DNA from: Perkinsus olseni
Lineage: Eukaryota
Length of the DNA: 64,000 nt
Assembly: GCA_013115125.1 (NCBI GenBank)
Contig: JABANN010000066.1
Coordinates: 1-64,000 of the forward strand
Direction: 5' to 3'
Shown here: positions 3,904 to 50,095 of the stretch, piece by piece
Layout of the letters: each line of letters starts with the position of its first letter
Numbering within the stretch: position 1 is the first letter of the stretch
Notes under the pieces: generated by a model
Database searches by the model: none
Seen by the model: only the letters and a program-made list of their open reading frames with translations
Told to the model about the DNA's origin: nothing
Made by a program: the position numbers and the translations under genes

Positions 3904-4416
3904 TCAAGGGTCCTGCATCAACTCCTCAACCTTCCAATCCTCATACCTGATCATGCAGGAATCACCAACGCCCTCGGGATGAGCACTCCTACGTCCCGTC
4001 AGGCAGGAACCTCCGCACGATAAAGGGGATGACCTTGGCCACCAGCTCCTTCTCGGCGATGGCCATGGGGTCCGTCTCGCCCTCAGTGTCCACCATCACG
4101 GGAGCGTTCATAGAGATCTGCAGCGCCCTAGTGCCGATTATTCGAGCACGTTCGTATCTAAGGTCAAAGCTTGCGCTTCACGGGTTTTCCACACTATCTA
4201 CTTGGTCATATAAGGAGAGGTCCTCCTAGGCCCCTCAGCTTCACGCGCCACGAAATCATCGTCCTTTGGTTGGGTCGGCACTCGGCCGCTGGTAATGATA
4301 TCGCCGCTTCCGCTGCCGCCAGCCACTTCTTCGTCGGCGTTGAGGTCCGGCATCAAGTCGTCCTCATCGACCTCAAGATCCTCTTCGGGATGCGAGCCTC
4401 CGCCTAGATCTGCCAT
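3904..4416 (-). CDS. RPB6: RNA polymerase I/II/III common subunit RPB6 (3 exons)
   Basis: Spliced translation: acidic N-terminus, [31 protein letters not shown]...[10 protein letters not shown]...[22 protein letters not shown]; two GT-AG introns. Confidence 0.95.
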
Positions 4417-4684
4417 TACTATCAAATACCAACTTTTCCGCAACTCATTCCTCCCTTCCACTATTAACTGCCAACCCAATATAAAGCTCCTCTGTCCCTC
4501 TTCGCAGCCTAATACACTAAAGCCATTGCTGTTCGAGTGCATCCACGATTCTGACAGGAACGACATCAAAGTCACTGCGAACGCGTATCGATCGTCAGGG
4601 CGCACGCTAGATCGTCGCATCTGAATGAATTCGCCAAATTCACCAGAGATCATCGTCCACTGCTGCCGTGTAGTTGTTGCTAGT

Positions 4685-7176
4685 ATGGCTGCTGCTACTG
4701 GGTTGGTGAAGTCCATCCACAGTGATGTGGCCGTGTATGATTTGGCCGCGGGCAAGTCGACGCCGCAGTTCATGGAGGAGGCCCGGAAAACGAACAAGTC
4801 CCTGCGGTATGATAGTGAATATAGGAGGAGGCTTGAACTGTTACAGGACTTCGAGTTCCCTACCACAAGCACCACGTAGTATCCTTAGGCTGACCATGCA
4901 AGATACAAAATAGGTCAAGTTGTTGACACTTTCAGAGTCCGTGTGTCGCCTGATGGATCATGCATATTGGCCACTGGTGTATACCCTCCCGAGATCCGTC
5001 TCTATGAGACAGCCGAGCTCGGATTGAAGTGTGCCCGGCGGTTGGACCAGGAGGCCATCGACGCCATCTTCCTCGGAGATGACTACAAGAAGCTCGCCAT
5101 ACTAGGGTCGGACAGGACTATCGAATTCCACGCTCAATACGGCAAGCACCATACGCTAAGGGTAGTACTGGGATCTGCGCGCGGCCTTCGGTGGACAGTC
5201 TCGGAAAAATTCGACAAGCGGTGTATTTCTGATGGCTCTACTGCCTTGGCGTGTGGTAGAGAATTCGAATGGGCGACATGAGCTTTTACAGTAGTAGTCT
5301 AAGTTTTCCTATCACGGTGACAGCCAGTTCGTGATGAAGTTCTCGGAAAACCATGACTAATTTATAGTTGCATCTTAGAGTAGTGTAGCCCTTTAGGTTC
5401 CCAAGTTCGGCAGGAACCTGCAGTACGACCGGAACACCTGTTTGTTATACGTAACATCCTCGACCAATGAGATCTACCGACTTGACCTCGAGGAGGGTAT
5501 CTTTGCTGCACCCTTGCTTGCCAGGAACATGGACTTCGTGAGTAAGGCATGGATCGACCTAAGATACGCTCCAAGTCATCGCTCTATCAGATGCCTCAGC
5601 ATTGGCCCCTAATGGCGCGCCTCTCCTTCTCTTCGGTGGCTCGGATGGTCAAGTCCAAATCATGGACACTCGGGAGGGTCCCTCGGCCGTCGCCTCCGGC
5701 GTCCAAGCCCCCGCTGAGGTCCGCTCGGTGGCCTGGAGCCTTCCTGACTGCCTGCAAGTGGCGGCCGGGGACATTTCCGGGCGCGTGACGGTTTGGGACA
5801 TCCGATCGAGCCGGCCTCTAGCGGAGAGAGATCATCGGAATGGCGTCCCAGTGCACACGGTGCAGTGGCATTCAAGGGGCGTCTTATGTTCTTCTGATTC
5901 ACGCACGATCACCTTCTGGAAGCCCGACGCGCATCGATCGGAAATCGTCACTTCGATTCCCTCCAAGACAGCTATCAACAGCGTCGCCCTGTGGCCTGGG
6001 TCGGGTATTATTTTCGCGGCGCGTGACGAGCCCCGAATTGGAACGTATTTCGTGCCGGAGTTGGGAGTGGCTCCTGAGTGGTGTGGCTTCTTGGACGGTC
6101 TCACTGAGGAGATGGAGGAGACTACCACTGGTGCCGTCACTAGTGTCTATGACGATTATGTATTTGTTACTAAGAAGGATCTCCAGCAGCTCAGCGGGGC
6201 TGATAGCCTTATCGGCACTAGCCTGCTCAAGGCCTACATGCATGGTTACTGGATGGACAGACGTCTTCATGATAAGCTCGTAAAGGTAGTAGTGAGTGAC
6301 TTTATCAGTTCCCATGGGGCATGGCGTCCTTTTCTACTTTTCCATCTCTGCCCGCCCTCGCTTGTGCTACGTAGGAGGACTCATTGTGCCGGAAGTATCC
6401 TCGCTGTTCCTCACTGTAAAGTTTTTCGCGAGGCGCAGCAAGTGTCGAACGTCTTTTCCCCTGTCATTCTTGTCGGTTTTTTCCGGGCCGACTGATCGGC
6501 ATCGTCACTTTCTCTGTCGTTTTCTACAGGAATCGACCCTAGTCGATCTGGTTGATATCCTCTTCCCTCTCTCAGCTCTCCGATTCCTCCACGTTCTCAC
6601 TGGCCGAGCATGAGAAGGAGCGTATTCAGGAAGCAGTTGACGCGAAGCGACCCATGCGCCGGCCTGCTCCGAAACAAGTGGCAAAGCCTAAGGTAGTGGT
6701 AGAATATGGTGTGGCTTCCGGTGCCCAGGGGTATCTTAGGTTAACGCTCGTCTGTTGGAGAAGGCTACATCAGAGTCGGCCAAGCAGGTCTTGGAGGATG
6801 ATAGGTTCGCTAAGTTGTTCAGCAACAAGGACTTTGAGATTGAGGAAGTCAGGGAAGGTACTATTGGGTTCGAATTGGAGTATTCTCATGGCTGATTGTT
6901 CAACATATTCTCGCAGATGAAGTGGAAGCGGCGCTCCATGATGCTCCCGCGCCAACCGGTGTTATGTCGACAGAAGCTCTCTCCTCCACGGGGGAGGCAG
7001 CCGATGGCGAGCAGAGGCCAAGAGGGAAGGGCAAAGGAAAGGGGAAGGGCAGAGGCAAAGGAAAGGGAAAGGGAAAGGGAAAGGGAAAGGGAAAGGGAAA
7101 GGGAAAGGGAAAGGGAAAGGGAAAGGGAAAGGGAAAAGGGAAGGGAAAAGGAAAGGGGAGGCGAGGGGGATTCTAG
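4685..7176 (+). CDS. NOL10: Nucleolar protein 10 / Enp2 (WD40 + NUC153), multi-exon
   Basis: [84 protein letters not shown]153-like [17 protein letters not shown]; last exon ends in (GK)n-RRGGF. Confidence 0.93.
7024..7157 (+). repeat. (GGAAAG)n-type coding microsatellite giving a Gly-Lys dipeptide run
   Basis: Purine-rich hexamer tandem array directly visible, in frame with the last NOL10 exon. Confidence 0.95.
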
Positions 7177-7377
7177 AGCCCTTCAATACGTTAACAACAG
7201 TTGTCCATTAACCTTTACTACGTTTCTACTCGTAATTTCTGTGAACTGAGTAGGGGGTCGGAGAACTTTCTCATAGGGAAGGGCGGATTCGGATTCTTCG
7301 TTCGCTGTGCTTTTACCGTCTACTTCGTCCGTGGTGATGTTTTTTCCCGTGGGTTGAAGTTGGGCTTGTTGTCCTCG

Positions 7378-10300
7378 ATGGTGCATCAACACAAGTCAAG
7401 CTCCGGTTTACGGCAGACCAACAAGCCACATAGCAGTAAGAAGGTCCTGGGCAAGGGACGAAGGACTCCCGTGAAGGTCACTAAGGTCGGGAGTAAAGAT
7501 ATTAGCAAACAGGACAGGCGGAACCAAGCCCGGCAGCTGAGGGACAACAGAAGGCAATCGATAATAGCGAAAAGGAGGGTTGCTCAGGGGAAGGAGGGGG
7601 CGAAGGGGCCGCTGAACGTAGCGCTAATAGCGTTCCATGGTGATGTGGATATGCGTAGGGTTTGGGGGTGCTTTGCGAATGAGATGGTATGGAAGGAGGA
7701 CGGAGTTAATGTAGCTGACGTTGGAGGTGTGAGGATCATTGCCTCTCCTTTGAGGACGATACACAGCTGCTTGGATACGGTATTGGCCAGTGATGTGATG
7801 GTGGGCGTGTTTGTGTGTGATAGGCTGTGCGATCATGAGCATAGTGCTTTTGATGATCTGGGATACGACATACTTACCAATTTGAAAATGAATGTAAGTG
7901 AGTAATCGAAAGGTCCCTGGTTCGAATCCTGGTGGGTGTATCATTAGGGTATGCCTGGTGAAGTGATTGGTGTGACGGCTCCTTCCAAGAATACAGGAGG
8001 GGATTTACTTTCTGGGAGACAACTCGATCTCAGTCTTAAGACTGTTCAAAGGTAGTGAAGTTTTGTTCTCGTTTTCCGATCTGGGAAACTGAGGAATACT
8101 AAAATAGAGTACTAGTAGTAGTAATAAAAGGAGTACAAAAAAATCTGCATCTTATTGTGTGATCTCCGATGACTAGAATGGTTCATAGCACCGTTGGTAG
8201 TTGCCACTGACCGTGTCGGTAGTAGCGTGTGTCCCTGTCATCGCAGGTATCTCCGTTCGGAGCTGCCTCGGGCACAGGGTAAGGTTTATAACCTGCCGAA
8301 GGACTCGGACACGTTTGTGAAGGGACTGCAGGCATGTGTGGGGACGAATGATGAGGGCATGAAGTGGAGAGAGGAAAGGGTAGGGACATCTGCGGGAGGT
8401 CCCGAGTTCGAACCCTGGTCTCGTCATTATTCCAGGGTTATATGATAGTAGATCGTATCGAGCCAGAGGCAGGTCAGCCCAGTGGCCATTGGGCTGTATC
8501 GGGATGGGTGAAGGGGATGGGTTTCGCCTGCAACTACGGGGAGACTCCTGAGGACGGTGAAGGGGCTTGTGTGCACATCACTGGCTACGGGGACGCGGTG
8601 TTGGAGGGCATCACTGGCAGCGCGGGGGAACTGGTAATGGGGAATTTCGTGGTGCGTGACGGATGAGATGAGCTTGAGATGCTCTCGGTATTGCTGTGAA
8701 TGTCAGATTGACCGGCGTTTGTATGATGTGGCTCAGAGGCTGAGACCTTATGACCCGAGCGACGAGGAACAGACTTGGCCTACAGAGGAGGAGCTCAACG
8801 AAGCCAGCCGAAGAATGATTAAAATGCCTCAAGGTGTTAAGGGTTTGGTTCATCTTTTTGGAGGGCGTGGGTTCGATCCTTAGATGGTTCATTTTTATTC
8901 TCGTCAGATGCTGGTCTCAGCGAATTTGAGGTCGCCTGGCTAGGAGAGGAGGCTGACGAGGAGGGTGATGACCAAATGATGCTTGATGATAACGAGGTGG
9001 TAGTGGTTTCGAGGGTCGTGATGGGTGGAGGCGAGCTCGGAAGGATGTTATAAACACAGCGCAGTGGCATGAATTTTCGAGTCGTTATTCGAGGCGCGCA
9101 CGTCCCGTGATGGGTATAACCGCTTTTTGACTGACTGAGTGGTGGTGGTAATAGTATCAGTATTCCCGTGAGCGTCACGGTCGATAGCGCTAAGATTCCG
9201 ATGAGGTTGATATATATCGTGTGGCCAACAGTACTGCGGTTGTTGGTCTCAGGTCGCGGCAGCTGCGGACGGCAAGACTACCGAACAGCAGGTGGAAGCT
9301 AAGCATTCGATTGAGATGGAGATGCGATCGAAGGAGGAGATGGACTTCCCTGATGAGGTTGATACGCCTTGTGATAAGCCTGCTAGACAGAGGTGATGTC
9401 GGGTGCAGGGATCGATCCGGAGACCTCTATGACCAGCTCGCATGGTTTCTTGGCCGTGAATCGTCAAAGGGCTATGACATGCGAAGCGACGACTGAATGC
9501 TCGCTTGAGGACCACTTAGTCCTGAAAACGCCTTACCTTGCATAAGGTTTTCCTTTCCGCTCCGCAGGCCTTCTCTCGTGATTTGTTGTCTCATCGTGCC
9601 CTTGAGCATGAGGCACTCCGTACCGCCTCGTGCTAGGTTCCAAAAGTATCGTGGTATGCAGTCCCTTCGTACCAGCGCATGGGACCCTTATGAGAGCCTT
9701 CCCACAGAGTACAGTCGTATATGGGAGTTCGAGAGCTTCCAAGCTACGGCCAAGGCTGCTAAGACCGAGTACAAGAACGGCATCAAGGCAGAGGCGAAGG
9801 CGGGGCAGTAAGGAGGGAATGATAATTTCGTGGCGCGTGACGCTGATGGGAGTTCAATATATGCTCAACTCCTCGGATTCGCTCCTCAGTTACGTGACCC
9901 TGCACATTTCTGGTATGGAAGGTCTCTCCTTCGATAACCGCGTGCCCTTGGTGGTCTCATCCCTCTTCCGCCATGAAACCCGGGTGACCGTCATGCACGC
10001 CAGCCTTAGTCGGACGCCTGAGTAAGAGCAACTTTGACTAATTTCGTGGCGAGTGACGCTGTTGTTGGCAGGACGGATGATGTTGTTATGAAGTCGAAGG
10101 AGTTGGTGCTCTTGCGCTGCGGCTTCCGAAGTCTTCCCGCTAGGCCGACCTACGCCAGCGTGAGTTTAACATCATCGCCATGGAAGGGGAGTGAGGCAAT
10201 GGTTTCTCAGAATATCCGAGGTTCTGGTGGCCCGGGAGGTGGTGCTGACGAGAAGGGTAGGATGCTCAGGTTCTTCCAACCCAATGCTAAGTCCACGACT

Positions 10301-11117
10301 CTGGCGTGGTAAGCGGGAAGAGGCGGGCTGTTGTCTCTCGGTAGTTGAACAAAATGCTGTATTGCAGTAGCAGGCGGGTTTTTCTAGTGCAGAGGTGGGA
10401 AAGGTGTGCGATCTCGTGGCGCGGGAGAATAGTAGCGAGTGTCGTCCCTCTGGCATGGCGTTGTGGTTTCCCGCGCGCCACGAAAGTATATCGGGTGCCA
10501 GCAGGAGCCGACTCTCTGATCTTGCATTCATCGCTGCTGGTTCGTCGTATGCCGTGGTAACGATAATCTTTGAAAGGGGTTGATCGATGTCCCGGAGTGT
10601 CCTCTCCGTACAACTCACGCGAGCCGCAAAATTCCTGTTCCTTTGCCTTGTTAGTTTCTACGCTCCAGTGATGTTCCCTCCTGCGCCATGCCTGATGTAT
10701 ACACCAGATGGCCAACGTCTAACCGCCTGGGGGAGTATTGAGGGCTCTTTCCCGGCTAAGGTCCTTATTAAGAGGATTGTCCTCACAGGGTGAGCATCGA
10801 CTTGACCTATTTCGTATCTTGCAAGGTTGCGAGATAGATACCCCTACCGCGCACACAAGAGCAGGTCAGTCGTCCGCTTCATGTTCTTCAACCCTGATGA
10901 TATCAATTGGTTCAAGCCAGTCGAGCTGCAGTCAAAGAAGGGCCTCCGAGGGCACATCACTGAGGCCTTGGGAACTCACGGTTACATGAAGTGCCGTTTC
11001 AACGGTCAAGTGACGCAGGACGACACCATCATGATGCCTCTATATAAGAGGGCCTTCCCTAAGTGGTACCCACCGGCCTGGGGGATGGCGGACACGTACA
11101 AGCCCACTGACCAGTAG
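7378..11117 (+). CDS. TSR1: Pre-rRNA processing protein TSR1 (40S maturation factor), multi-exon
   Basis: N-terminal [63 protein letters not shown]-terminal [20 protein letters not shown]...[17 protein letters not shown]...LYKRAFPKW. Confidence 0.94.
7894..7947 (+). other. TSR1 intron containing a tRNA 3'-half-like fragment (Phe/Asn-like)
   Basis: 54-nt GT-AG intron containing AAAGGTCCCTGGTTCGAATCCTGG. Confidence 0.7.
8380..8435 (+). other. TSR1 intron containing a tRNA 3'-half-like fragment (Pro-like)
   Basis: 56-nt GT-AG intron containing TGCGGGAGGTCCCGAGTTCGAACCCTGG. Confidence 0.6.
8834..8907 (+). other. TSR1 intron containing a tRNA 3'-half-like fragment (Leu-like)
   Basis: 74-nt GT-AG intron containing TCTTTTTGGAGGGCGTGGGTTCGATCC. 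Confidence 0.6.
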
Positions 11118-47528: not shown

Positions 47529-50095
47529 TCAGGAATCATGCAGCCATTGAGTGATGTTATCGACATCCGGCTGGAAGATACTCCCAGATGTGCTCGTGTT
47601 CCATAATAGTCCATAGAGCCCGTCAACGATACCGCGGATGGCAGCTTGGGGTATCTTTGCGAGCCAGGGTCTTAGCGGAGCGATGCTGAGGAGCTGGTCA
47701 CTTGTATGAGTATGAGATACGGCAGCTTGAAGTGCAGTGCAAGCATGAACACGAGGCTCAGGGCGAACTGCTCTGTCGTCGACATGTTGGCCAGCCGGGT
47801 GATCCCTAGTGGACAGAGCTGATGAGGGGCCGAAGGGGTGAGGGAGGTTCACATGGATGCCTCTCGCGCAAGGCGTGTTTGCTCTCTGCCTTCAACCTTT
47901 CGAGCTCTTCCCGGGACCTCAGGGAGACAACTATTAGTGACCCTCTAGCTTTCGCTATACTCCTCTTGCTTCGGCTGATCAATTTTGTTTCTCATCCACT
48001 GCGCGCATCCAGTCGCCTGATAGACGGGCAGCTCTAAGTCGCAGCAGCATTGGCCGTACACGCTACCGCGAGCATCAGTTCTTCGGATGCGGGAAAGGCG
48101 TTGTTCTCCTTGAGAGATTCGAACCTCCTGAGCTCCTCGGAAACCTGATAGAGCCCTCAAGACTGCCCATGGCTGCACATGGCCGAATAGTAGCGGCAGT
48201 CAGGAGCACAGCAGTCCAGAGTGTACTATTGGATCCTTGAGGTCGAGGCCAAACCTGTCCATGACCTCGCGGCAGACGGTATCATCTAATAGCTGACCGG
48301 TCTTCGAGAGACGTGATGTCTGAGGTGCCCAAGAAAGCGAAACACACAACTACAGGGTTTGACACTCACCATCATCTTTGTCGCCTCGCATGACCTCGAG
48401 TAAGCTCGCTGCTTCTTAAGGAGCTGAGAGGATACACTAGAGATGATCCGGTGGTCGCACGCCCATCGAGTCACCTGTTTGATGTAGGCCTCCATTCTGA
48501 CAGCCTTCTCCTTCTCACCTCCGCTCAGGTAGAGGTCCCTTAGCACCGCTCCGCTCGGATACTCTCCTCAAGAAGTTACCTCAGTAGTTGGGCATCCTTC
48601 AATCGCGACTGCACTGCTTCGTGCAGCTTCCCATCATCGGTCTCCTGAAAGCCGCAGTGATCGAAGCCTAGCAGAGTCGAGCCAAGCAGGGGTGTAGGAA
48701 GCCGATCTTAGGGGGTGAGAGAGGGGCGAGCTACATCACATCACCAGAGGGCCCGAATCGCTGCCAAGGTCGTCGCTGCCCTTCGACAGGGCGGTCTCAA
48801 GGGATAAAGAGCCGCGAGCTGACAGGTGTTGTTGCGATCCTTCAGGCCAGAGAATCGGCTGGGGTAAGACTACTGCACCATCCTGAGTAAGCCTTCTTCT
48901 CATCGCTCCGCTTCCTCGATCTCTCCGATTGCAGCCGACGCAGGAAGACGGCTACTTCCTGAGTAACCCTCTCGAGATAAGTTTCAGTTGGAACTCCTAT
49001 AAGATCACCGTGTTGTTAGGGTCGACCTCGCGAGCGCTGGCGAGGAGCTTGACAGCTTCATCAACCTCAGCATCACCGCTGGACGCTGGCTCCACCAGGC
49101 ACTTGGCCTTCCTGCCAGACAACAGACCCCACCGCGGCCATCCACATTGAGGCCTACCGGAACATTGCCTTCACATTAGTGCTATCTAGCTGCAGTATGA
49201 CGTCGCATGTACGGCAAGCCTCAGGCAGCATCTCCTTGCCTGGCCACGATCACGGAGGTCTCCACTAGCTGACTATTGCGGAAGAGAAAGATTTGAGGCC
49301 TACCCAACTTCATCTGGCACATAGCGATGTTGCTGTAGCACTGCACTCTGAGCTCTCGGATCGTTGCCTGCTCCTCCTCGCCTAAAGCACGAAGGCCATT
49401 CCCTATGCAAGACCGTACGGTAGTGAAATGGGATGCTTCACATCATTACAAGAATGACTATGATGATATCGTCACGTTAACAGCGATGGCTCGTTAAGAG
49501 CGGTAACTCCTACTTTGGCCTATGTCAGTGACGACCTCCAGGTAATCGTCATTGAGACCTTCGCGTCTCCAGTTAGCGTTCAAGATCCGGGCGTAGTAGA
49601 AGAGACCGGCCGCCTGGCTGTATCTGTGCAGCCCTCTCCCTCCAGCCATTCCCAGGGGTTCAGAAACAGGCACCTATTCATGGCCAGGAAGTACTCCCCT
49701 TCGGTGTAGTATTCAGTTGCCTCCTCCTTCAATCTGCCACAGCGCTGATAGCACCGACAGGTGTAGCCATTCGTACCGCCGTGCAGCCTTTAGCCTCTCT
49801 TGGTGGGGCAGGGCTCGGAGGTTGTCGAAGGAGTCCTCGTCGACAAACACAGGAGATTGATTCTCTGACCACCACCCTTACCCTCTCCAACCACACCGGC
49901 AGGCTCCCTACCCTGTTCATGCCCCATGAAGGCGGTGTACTGGAGAAGCACCGGCCAGGATTCGAACCTGGGGCCTCGAGTGCTGCACTGTTAGACTTGA
50001 GCTTTGCCATCGAACCTCTTCCGTTTAGCGCTGGACTGAGCCCCCTTTATCTTGGCAGCATCCGCTAGTATTCTGCTGAATGAAGTCTCGTCCAT
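47529..50095 (-). CDS. TPR-repeat protein, multi-exon
   Basis: Spliced ERLKAARRLKEEATEYYTEGEYFLAMNR and LRVQCYSNIAMCQMK are co-chaperone-type TPR helices; both ends approximate. Confidence 0.65.

Follow-up and report, generated by a model that had tools for sequence, protein, structure and literature searches.

Relics resembling the 3′ parts of tRNA genes in short spliceosomal introns of TSR1 and other genes of Perkinsus

The window analysed here, a 64-kb stretch of DNA from Perkinsus (contig JABANN010000066.1, positions 1 to 64,000), contains a TSR1-like ribosome-biogenesis gene (coding region 7378..11117, plus strand), of which three introns carry tRNA-like motifs, namely AAAGGTCCCTGGTTCGA at 7909-7925 in intron 1, TGCGGGAGGTCCCGAGTTCGAACCC from 8391 in intron 3 and GGAGGGCGTGGGTTCGATCC from 8860 in intron 5. 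The best-supported interpretation of the three motifs is that they derive from the 3′ parts of tRNA genes and have since decayed, with different copies coming from different tRNA types. About eight such copies were found in the 64-kb window, and five sense copies lie inside short spliceosomal introns of three genes. We give a probability of roughly 0.58 to the reading that 3′ parts of tRNA genes or precursor tRNAs (pre-tRNAs) were inserted and, as relics without a function, now fill these short introns.

RESULTS

Three excised TSR1 introns carry tRNA-like sequences

The TSR1-like coding region comprises 13 exons and 12 GT..AG introns and encodes 736 amino acids. Splice joints were obtained from contigs of four RNA-like public runs (four studies), with 15 joints listed and 37 further ones, and the TSR1 intron coordinates are those joints corrected for their stated cut offsets. 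All 12 TSR1 introns are among the 15 listed joints, 10 in 4/4 runs and two in 3/4. Intron 1 (7894-7947, plus strand, 54 nucleotides (nt); GT..AG joint 7893/7948), intron 3 (8380-8435, plus strand, 56 nt; joint 8378/8435, cut +1) and intron 5 (8834-8907, plus strand, 74 nt; joint 8831/8906, cut +2) were each joined in 4/4 runs and are excised exactly in the RNA-derived contigs. Splicing yields the 736-amino-acid open frame with the junctions ..LKMN/GMPG.., ..WREER/GYMI.. and ..KMPQ/DAGLS... Thus, the first-pass annotation had correctly placed three motifs in three TSR1 introns, with the junction frames restored and the RNA joints present in four runs, and the intronic copies leave the mRNA together with the intron.

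The three copies differ in extent and preservation. For comparison with real tRNAs, 730 unique real tRNAs were searched against the window with blastn-short, using eight dinucleotide shuffles as the null (maxima 30.2-34.2 bits). Relic 1 (7903..7941, plus strand), the 3′ part of a tRNA-Arg(tct)-type gene, occupies 39 of the 54 nt of intron 1, and begins at the end of the anticodon loop, includes the variable loop, the T arm and the 3′ acceptor strand, and closes with a discriminator A followed by TCA, with a single T:T mismatch in the T stem. By local alignment it matches the tRNA-Arg(tct) in locus L074 at 35/39 positions, from the last anticodon-loop bases to the discriminator A and the next T, and by blastn-short the tRNA-Arg(tct) in L202 at 31/32 positions (56.0 bits), so that the tRNA-Phe identity proposed for intron 1 has to be replaced by tRNA-Arg(tct) as the nearest type.

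Relic 2 (8391..8426, plus strand) in intron 3 is a tRNA-Pro(tgg)-type 3′ part reaching from about position 38 to the T stem, and its local alignment with the tRNA-Pro(tgg) in L116 gave 25/28 identical positions over a stretch that begins at position 38 and ends with the 3′ T-stem strand, in agreement with the proline type suggested earlier. The acceptor-like 7 nt (TCTCGTC) and the following A differ from the L116 tRNA-Pro(tgg), the relic 2 acceptor pattern had 0 matches in viral contigs, and the B-box is impaired (AGTTCGAACC) by loss of a key G. The blastn-short scores of relic 2 are marginal, 32.2 bits in sense and 36.2 bits on the opposite strand against a null maximum of 34.2.

Relic 3 (8858..8893, plus strand) in intron 5 is a decayed variable-loop/T-arm piece followed by ATGGTTC-A-TTTTT. 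The best real tRNA matches it at 16/28 non-core positions, so no isotype is assignable and the earlier attribution to tRNA-Leu could not be upheld; its blastn-short score of 28.2 bits is not significant against the shuffle maxima. A looser relic 3 pattern had 17 matches, 14 of them tRNA-Lys(ctt). A 12-nt direct repeat (TGGTTCATCTTT at 8846-8857, TGGTTCATTTTT at 8885-8896) flanks the 27-nt T-arm piece of intron 5, and may be a target duplication or a product of local slippage.

Further copies in other introns and elsewhere in the window

A 67-nt intron at 26641..26707 (plus strand) interrupts a PALP-domain gene, with PALP hits on both sides and an open spliced frame; an RNA contig piece ends at 26639, and the 3′ splice site, outside the listed joints, is a putative one. 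The intron holds relic 4 (26650..26679, plus strand), a tRNA-Glu(ctc)-type 3′ part with a discriminator A and a TTTTT trailer, which matches the tRNA-Glu(ctc) in L230 at 29/30 positions including the ATTT trailer by local alignment and scored 48.1 bits with blastn-short. In viral contigs, all six matches to the pattern of this intron (6/6) are tRNA-Glu(ctc).

Relic 5 (about 30390-30425, plus strand), found by nhmmer and alignment, makes up about 36 of the 49 nt of an intron at 30391..30439 (plus strand) in a gene for a hypothetical protein, and the exon ends 30390 and 30440 were given by tblastn with three of four P. olseni proteins (P0122-P0124), the fourth matching in another frame. The four P. 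olseni ‘hypothetical protein’ entries map to the gene at 28782-31053 (plus strand) with 88-96% identity over the exon used, and represent either several diverged alleles or several paralogues.

Relic 6 (49948..49983, minus strand) consists of a T arm of Pro/Arg type, whose 5-bp stem is fully paired, and of the 3′ acceptor strand. A neighbouring 5′ strand (GCACTCG) is complementary to that acceptor strand at 6/7 positions, which results in an acceptor/T-arm minihelix. It matches the tRNA-Pro(tgg) in L116 at 28/30 positions including the acceptor strand (local alignment), and a tRNA-Arg(tct) at 27/28 positions (48.1 bits, blastn-short). A presumptive minus-strand gene lies downstream of relic 6, which ends 15 nt ahead of an AG and does not sit in a verified intron; when the stretch is spliced as an intron behind an upstream ATG, an apparent early stop follows in the frame read by eye, and it may belong to the 5′ flank of that gene, for which a protein search gave zero hits.

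Two weak copies were added by the nhmmer profile search. That at 9400..9432 (minus strand; core GGATCGA; E value 0.11) lies antisense at the 5′ end of TSR1 intron 7 (9393-9636, plus strand, 244 nt), and that at 27368..27395 (minus strand; core GGTTCAA; E value 0.054; 30.2 bits, inside the null range) is probably outside an intron, in the gap from 27322, where one RNA contig piece ends, to 27447, where another begins. As related copies are present in the 30391 intron, in TSR1 intron 7 (on the opposite strand) and ahead of a presumptive gene (49948-49983), the relics are a dispersed class and not a TSR1-specific array.

Similarity to tRNAs extends beyond the T-loop consensus

Across the window, the blastn-short search against the 730 tRNAs gave 56.0 bits for intron 1, 48.1 bits each for the copy at 49948 and the 26641 intron, and 36.2 and 32.2 bits for intron 3, with all else at ≤32.2 bits. 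tRNA similarity beyond the T-loop consensus is accordingly significant for intron 1, 26641 and 49948 and marginal for intron 3, while intron 5 and the copies at 30391, 9416 and 27384 are not individually significant, matching at best ≤17/28 non-core positions among the compared tRNAs. The provisionally labelled source types are Arg(tct), Pro(tgg) and Glu(ctc).

Metagenome and prokaryote-genome collections were searched for a 23-nt pattern that intron 1 has in common with the copy at 49948, and gave at least 233 matches in 229 fetched loci, at least 210 of them at the 3′ end of ARAGORN-called tRNAs. Among the matches listed, the 210 tRNA 3′ ends included 167 of tRNA-Arg, 20 of tRNA-Lys and 10 of tRNA-Ile, and the 167 tRNA-Arg matches listed were distributed over the anticodons tct (63), tcg (61), acg (24), ccg (10), gcg (5) and cct (4). 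The claim that the motifs are tRNA 3′-part sequences of different types is thereby borne out by pattern matches, alignments and blast scores above the null. A single SINE-like family (SINE, short interspersed nuclear element) with one ancestor, hinted at by a six-copy consensus, was dropped because the copies match different isotypes.

Motif counts and flank conservation exceed chance

The exact pattern GGTTCGANYC occurs eight times in the window against 1.22 ± 1.00 expected, and 0/100 shuffles reach eight, which sustains the view of the first-pass annotation that the local density is above chance. Four of the eight hits lie in introns (7919, 8870, 26655 and 30400), one lies in the copy at 49948-49983, one at 28739, and two in apparent coding sequence, at 48116 (..LRRFESLK.., an open reading frame with a positive codon score) and 41396 (an EamA open reading frame). 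With up to one mismatch, GGTTCGANNCC was found 35 times against 15.0 ± 4.3 expected, with the palindromic core double-counted in some, while an A-box pattern was not enriched in the window (28 versus 26.7 expected; 38/100 shuffles reach 28).

Six sequences (TSR1 introns 1, 3 and 5, the introns at 26641 and 30391, and 49940-49988 on the minus strand) align over ~38 nt with the consensus GAGGnCCCnGGTTCGATCCCTGGnnGGTnCATTTTT. A leave-one-out test was performed in which the GGTTCGA core, being the search key, was masked and only the flanks were scored, with 285 TTCRA sites of the window as controls. Each of the six copies beats 285/285 controls; five scored 11.9-15.3 bits against control maxima of ≤3.7, including relic 2 with 15.3 and relic 3 with 13.2, either reached by 0/285 controls, and the 30391 copy scored 0.3 against −0.2. 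A flank-only scan for copies with a mutated core, of low power, found no new site above the null: the best site outside the training set, the copy at 9400-9432, reached 11.5 bits, below the null maximum (mean 13.7, highest 20.7).

The copies are 3′ parts that end in a T-rich trailer

The significant blast matches all begin at tRNA position ≥37, and no 5′-half relics were found, hits to 5′ parts having E values of ≥0.003 per query over 730 queries. The copies begin between the anticodon loop and the variable loop and end at the discriminator, where a T-rich trailer follows. The bases after the discriminator are TCA, TTA, TTT, TTT, TAT, TCT and TCA, and none of the copies has CCA. The trailer in place of CCA points to a gene or a primary transcript, and not to a mature tRNA, as the source. 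Relic 4 shares the ATTT trailer with tRNA-Glu genes; beyond the discriminator, only T-richness is common to the copies.

Measured from the T stem of the relic, the 5′ splice site of the host intron is 6-33 nt away and the 3′ splice site 15-39 nt; with such variable spacing, the relic does not provide the splice sites in fixed register. The stretch of intron ahead of the tRNA-like part is no more than 9-11 nt long in introns 1 and 3. A flanking direct repeat was found in one of four copies examined, the 12-nt repeat of intron 5; a repeat at 26695-26724 does not flank the relic at 26650-26679, and AGGGT at both ends of intron 3, considered as a duplication, was rejected for being one base out of register.

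The copies are neither tRNA genes nor stable hairpins

ARAGORN called 0 tRNA genes in the 64-kb window, and Rfam gave 0 hits at gathering score on the window. Rfam searches by E value were performed singly on five of the six host stretches (introns 1, 3 and 5, the 26641 intron and 49940-49988), so that truncated alignments were allowed. The tRNA family was returned for intron 1 only, as a 5′-truncated alignment over model positions 33-71 (12.5 bits, E value 1.8, gathering 29), and mascRNA-menRNA was returned for 49940-49988 (15.5 bits, E value 0.25) and the 26641 intron (10.1 bits) against a gathering score of 42.5. A tmRNA T arm was also among the sub-threshold families for the 26641 intron and 49940-49988, and nothing tRNA-like was returned for introns 3 and 5 searched alone.

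The six host sequences fold with z-scores between −0.54 and +1.10, none of them being more stable than shuffles, and the reading of the introns as structured RNAs was dropped on that ground. The T-arm hairpin is mostly missing from the minimum-energy folds, and the T stem is mismatched in 4/6 copies, with 5/5 pairs only in the 26652 and 49971 copies. The copies are thus not tRNA genes and form no stable hairpins.

The TSR1 gene, its other introns and a second motif

The window is eukaryotic DNA with 52% G+C and zero N. Single TSR1 exons match the Pfam families AARP2CN and RIBIOP_C, the last exon with 116 bits. The spliced model is identical to a Perkinsus olseni TSR1 protein (P0002), the closest protein, at 716/736 positions, and two Perkinsus olseni TSR1 entries match the last exon with 100% identity; judged from the 716/736 identity, the window is Perkinsus DNA, an allele or strain ~3% from P0002. 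P0002 has an extra GVK at the donor of intron 5 (window 8834-8842), with the annotated donor 9 nt downstream, and the upstream donor is backed, against that of P0002, by contigs of 4/4 runs. A TSR1 exon 1 pattern gave 259 pattern stretches in metagenome contigs, of which 0 were confirmed. TSR1 relatives from JGI (Joint Genome Institute) are contigs of ~2.4 kb for ~790 amino acids, and therefore intronless transcripts. A homemade codon-log-odds intron predictor was dropped, as it recovered three of eight known short TSR1 introns among 1340 plus-strand candidates.

The other TSR1 introns, all on the plus strand, are intron 2 (8052-8246, 195 nt), intron 4 (8634-8706, 73 nt), intron 6 (8997-9252, 256 nt), intron 8 (9808-9889, 82 nt), intron 9 (10022-10071, 50 nt), intron 10 (10160-10210, 51 nt), intron 11 (10309-10654, 346 nt) and intron 12 (10790-10837, 48 nt, the shortest intron seen).

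A second motif, TTTCGTGGCGCGTGA(CG), has nine sites at ≤2 mismatches against 1.29 expected, namely 4241 (−), 5774 (+), 6012 (+), 8645 (+), 9826 (+), 10042 (+), 10412 (+), 10471 (−) and a ninth at 9964 (two mismatches), which is probably due to chance. It is confined to 6 kb holding a minus-strand gene, a NOL10-like gene and TSR1 (window 4241-10485), with 0 sites in the other 58 kb, and is present in TSR1 introns 4, 8, 9 and 11; the motif may represent a further repeat family carried by introns, or else a regulatory site common to neighbouring ribosome-biogenesis genes. The two copies in intron 11 (10414-10429 and 10468-10483) form a 16-nt inverted repeat, 88% complementary with a 38-nt spacer, that resembles the small hairpin or MITE-like unit (MITE, miniature inverted-repeat transposable element) described for introners in related alveolates. 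Among the TSR1 introns shorter than 100 nt, 6/8 carry a recurrent family, either a tRNA relic (introns 1, 3 and 5) or the TTTCGTGGCGCG motif (introns 4, 8 and 9), the only short ones without either family being those at 10160-10210 (51 nt) and 10790-10837 (48 nt). A long (GGAAAG)n run lies at about 7030-7160 at the 3′ end of the NOL10-like gene, and would encode a Lys-Gly tail just before TSR1.

DISCUSSION

Origin of the relics

The reading that we prefer, that of functionless relics of inserted 3′ parts, would have its origin in the insertion of 5′-truncated copies of tRNA genes or primary pre-tRNA transcripts. The copies may have been made by a SINE-like retro-pseudogene process, i.e. reverse transcription of the primary pre-tRNA with 5′ truncation, or alternatively by templated filling of DNA breaks. 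They would have persisted in introns, which presumably hold much of the unconstrained DNA of a compact genome, and would at present be intron filler only, although the pyrimidine tract that precedes the 3′ splice site may be reinforced by the T-rich trailer. The TSR1 cluster would be a local excess of insertions in an intron-dense gene, and no working tRNA array.

Several points weigh against this reading. The tRNA comparison set was fetched with relic-derived patterns and is mostly prokaryotic or viral, and the identities are therefore partly by construction and the isotype labels provisional; independent support comes from the patterns falling almost only in tRNA 3′ ends, and outside the pattern-specified positions the identity is 12/15 for intron 1 and 8/8 for the 26641 intron. 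Introns 1 and 3 show neither an in-register target-site duplication (‘both’ values 1-2) nor a direct repeat. With the relic taking up 39/54 nt of intron 1 and about 36/49 nt of the 30391 intron, and the shortest intron being 48 nt, such introns can hardly have existed at their present size before the insertion, and a landing in old introns therefore needs later deletions, unless the insertion made the intron. Five verified sense intronic copies versus one weak antisense copy are more skewed than random insertion, and counting the unverified 49948-49983 the ratio is 6:1 in sense (one-sided binomial 0.06, small sample). Lastly, the low power of the flank-only scan leaves room for selection on the B-box core.

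Since the host introns are small and the sense copies in excess, we also keep, as a tentative and rather doubtful reading, that in Perkinsus 3′ halves of tRNA genes or primary pre-tRNA transcripts, extending from the anticodon or variable loop into the trailer and devoid of CCA, serve as a raw material for the creation of new short spliceosomal introns. A half-tRNA of 30-40 nt plus a few flanking bases giving GT and AG would reach the preferred intron length of ~50 nt, and the T-run of the tRNA trailer would act as the pyrimidine tract. If true, this would explain both the sense predominance and the relic filling up to ~70% of near-minimum introns, and would constitute a new intron source, distinct from the transposon-type introners described so far.

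Alternative explanations

It is unlikely that the copies are kept for a function, either as putative B-box-only TFIIIC sites (of the kind found in yeasts and compared below) or as T-arm/minihelix signals in the pre-mRNA, with the TSR1 cluster as a putative multi-B-box platform. Such a role would fit the perfect GGTTCGAATCC in two copies and GGTTCGAT(C/T)C in three more, a B-box that stands alone given that the A-box is not in excess, the four copies inside 1.55 kb of TSR1, the predominant sense orientation, and the minihelix of the copy at 49948-49983 (6/7 acceptor pairs, perfect T stem), a copy that at 15.5 bits gave the highest Rfam score for a processed RNA of tRNA-like type. However, the core was the search key, so that its conservation is a matter of ascertainment, and a key G of the B-box is lost in intron 3 (AGTTCGAACC). 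The similarity to tRNAs moreover runs past the B-box into the acceptor strand and trailer, which fits descent and not selection for a 10-nt site, while the hairpins are mismatched in 4/6 copies, no intron folds better than shuffles, and every Rfam score is far under gathering.

The first-pass annotation had suggested an ancestral intron-nested tRNA array. On this reading, functional tRNA genes lying in the TSR1 introns in the orientation of the gene would have decayed in place while intron shrinkage removed the 5′ halves. The copies are indeed gene-like in having a T-rich trailer and no CCA, and different isotypes in one orientation within ~1 kb are as expected of a tRNA gene cluster; deletions would also do less harm in the 5′ and middle parts of a short intron than around its branch site and 3′ splice site, a bias that could favour the survival of 3′ halves wherever the relic stops 7-9 nt short of that splice site, as it does in introns 1 and 3. 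Yet 3′-part relics also occur in introns of two unrelated genes (26641 and 30391), where they lie at the 5′ end of the intron, one copy is antisense and two are outside verified introns. About eight relics and zero intact tRNA genes in 64 kb are a far higher density than that of functional tRNA genes, and exact loss of the 5′ half would be needed separately in three introns. The introns, at 54-74 nt, are at most about the length of a class I tRNA (72-77 nt), introns 1 and 3 being clearly shorter, and neither an A-box excess nor a 5′-half match was found. With only 3′ parts, short introns, relics in other genes and this density, such an array is very unlikely. Chance or base composition, whereby GGTTCGA-like words arise at random in GC-balanced introns, is scarcely credible as a general explanation. 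Two of the eight exact GGTTCGANYC hits fall in apparent coding sequence (48116 and 41396), and intron 5 and the 30391 copy are not individually significant against real tRNAs; but the count of eight against 1.22 expected was reached in 0/100 shuffles, scores of 56.0, 48.1 and 48.1 bits stand against a null maximum of 34.2, and with only the flanks scored, none of the six copies is equalled by any of the 285 controls of the leave-one-out test. Chance is thus refuted for intron 1, 26641 and 49948, and possible only for the weakest copies (9400-9432 and 27368-27395).

Comparison with known systems

SINEs derived from tRNAs carry a whole tRNA head with A and B boxes, a body and a tail, usually with target duplications, and SINEs and tRNA retro-pseudogenes are dispersed and multi-copy, come from several tRNA types, occur also in introns and decay neutrally. 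The relics resemble them in being dispersed, multi-copy and tRNA-derived with a B-box, in representing several tRNA types, in lying in non-coding DNA and in their probably neutral decay. They differ from SINEs in consisting of the last 30-39 nt of a tRNA followed by a T-rich trailer, without an A-box excess or a shared body, and in showing a flanking direct repeat in 1/4 copies examined.

Extra TFIIIC (ETC) sites of budding yeast and chromosome-organizing clamp (COC) sites of fission yeast are B-box-only TFIIIC sites, mostly intergenic and defined by TFIIIC binding, of which some come from former tRNA genes and are sometimes clustered. As candidate sites, the relics share with them the B-box consensus GGTTCGANNCC without an A box, perfect at 7919 and 49958 and with one mismatch in further copies, but are intronic, mostly sense and tRNA-like far past the B-box. 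For Daphnia, intron gain through DNA-break repair with filler DNA has reportedly been proposed, with short direct repeats predicted at the intron borders. Short new introns would there be made of unrelated inserted DNA, which would account for introns that are mainly a foreign fragment; introns 1 and 3, however, have no in-register border repeats, and to our knowledge tRNA fragments have not been reported as break-repair filler. The copy at 49948-49983 resembles mascRNA (RF01684) in having an acceptor stem and T arm without D and anticodon arms, and aligns to the whole model, but with 15.5 bits against a gathering score of 42.5, and the other copies have no 5′ acceptor strand.

Introners are intron-generating transposable elements of Micromonas, Aureococcus, dinoflagellates and Amoebophrya, and each of their families is made up of nearly identical copies that have inverted and direct repeats and a constant register of the splice sites (PMC7789003, PMC12130899). 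The present case is similar in that recurrent families form most of the very short introns in an alveolate, and dissimilar in that the relics come from different tRNAs, at variable distances from the splice sites and without terminal inverted repeats. The words tRNA, SINE and Perkinsus do not occur in the main text of an introner survey that covered 8,716 genomes, although its supplements could list such families (PMC12130899). Our full-text literature searches returned no report of tRNA-half relics in spliceosomal introns or of intron repeats in Perkinsus.

Implications

For annotation, the lesson is that motifs of this kind are not tRNA genes. The origin of new spliceosomal introns is a long-standing question with few concrete sources besides transposon-type introners, and the bulk of some short introns is here the back half of a tRNA gene, of several types and still 89-97% identical to real tRNAs, which hints that 3′-half relics of tRNAs are an unusual source of intron sequence in Perkinsus. 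Were the copies conserved, they would provide the first B-box-only candidates from an alveolate. If thousands of such relics exist genome-wide and are variably present or absent in relatives, they would reveal a new route to intron sequence, and perhaps to introns, and with it an unusual process of half-tRNA copying in the sister lineage of dinoflagellates.

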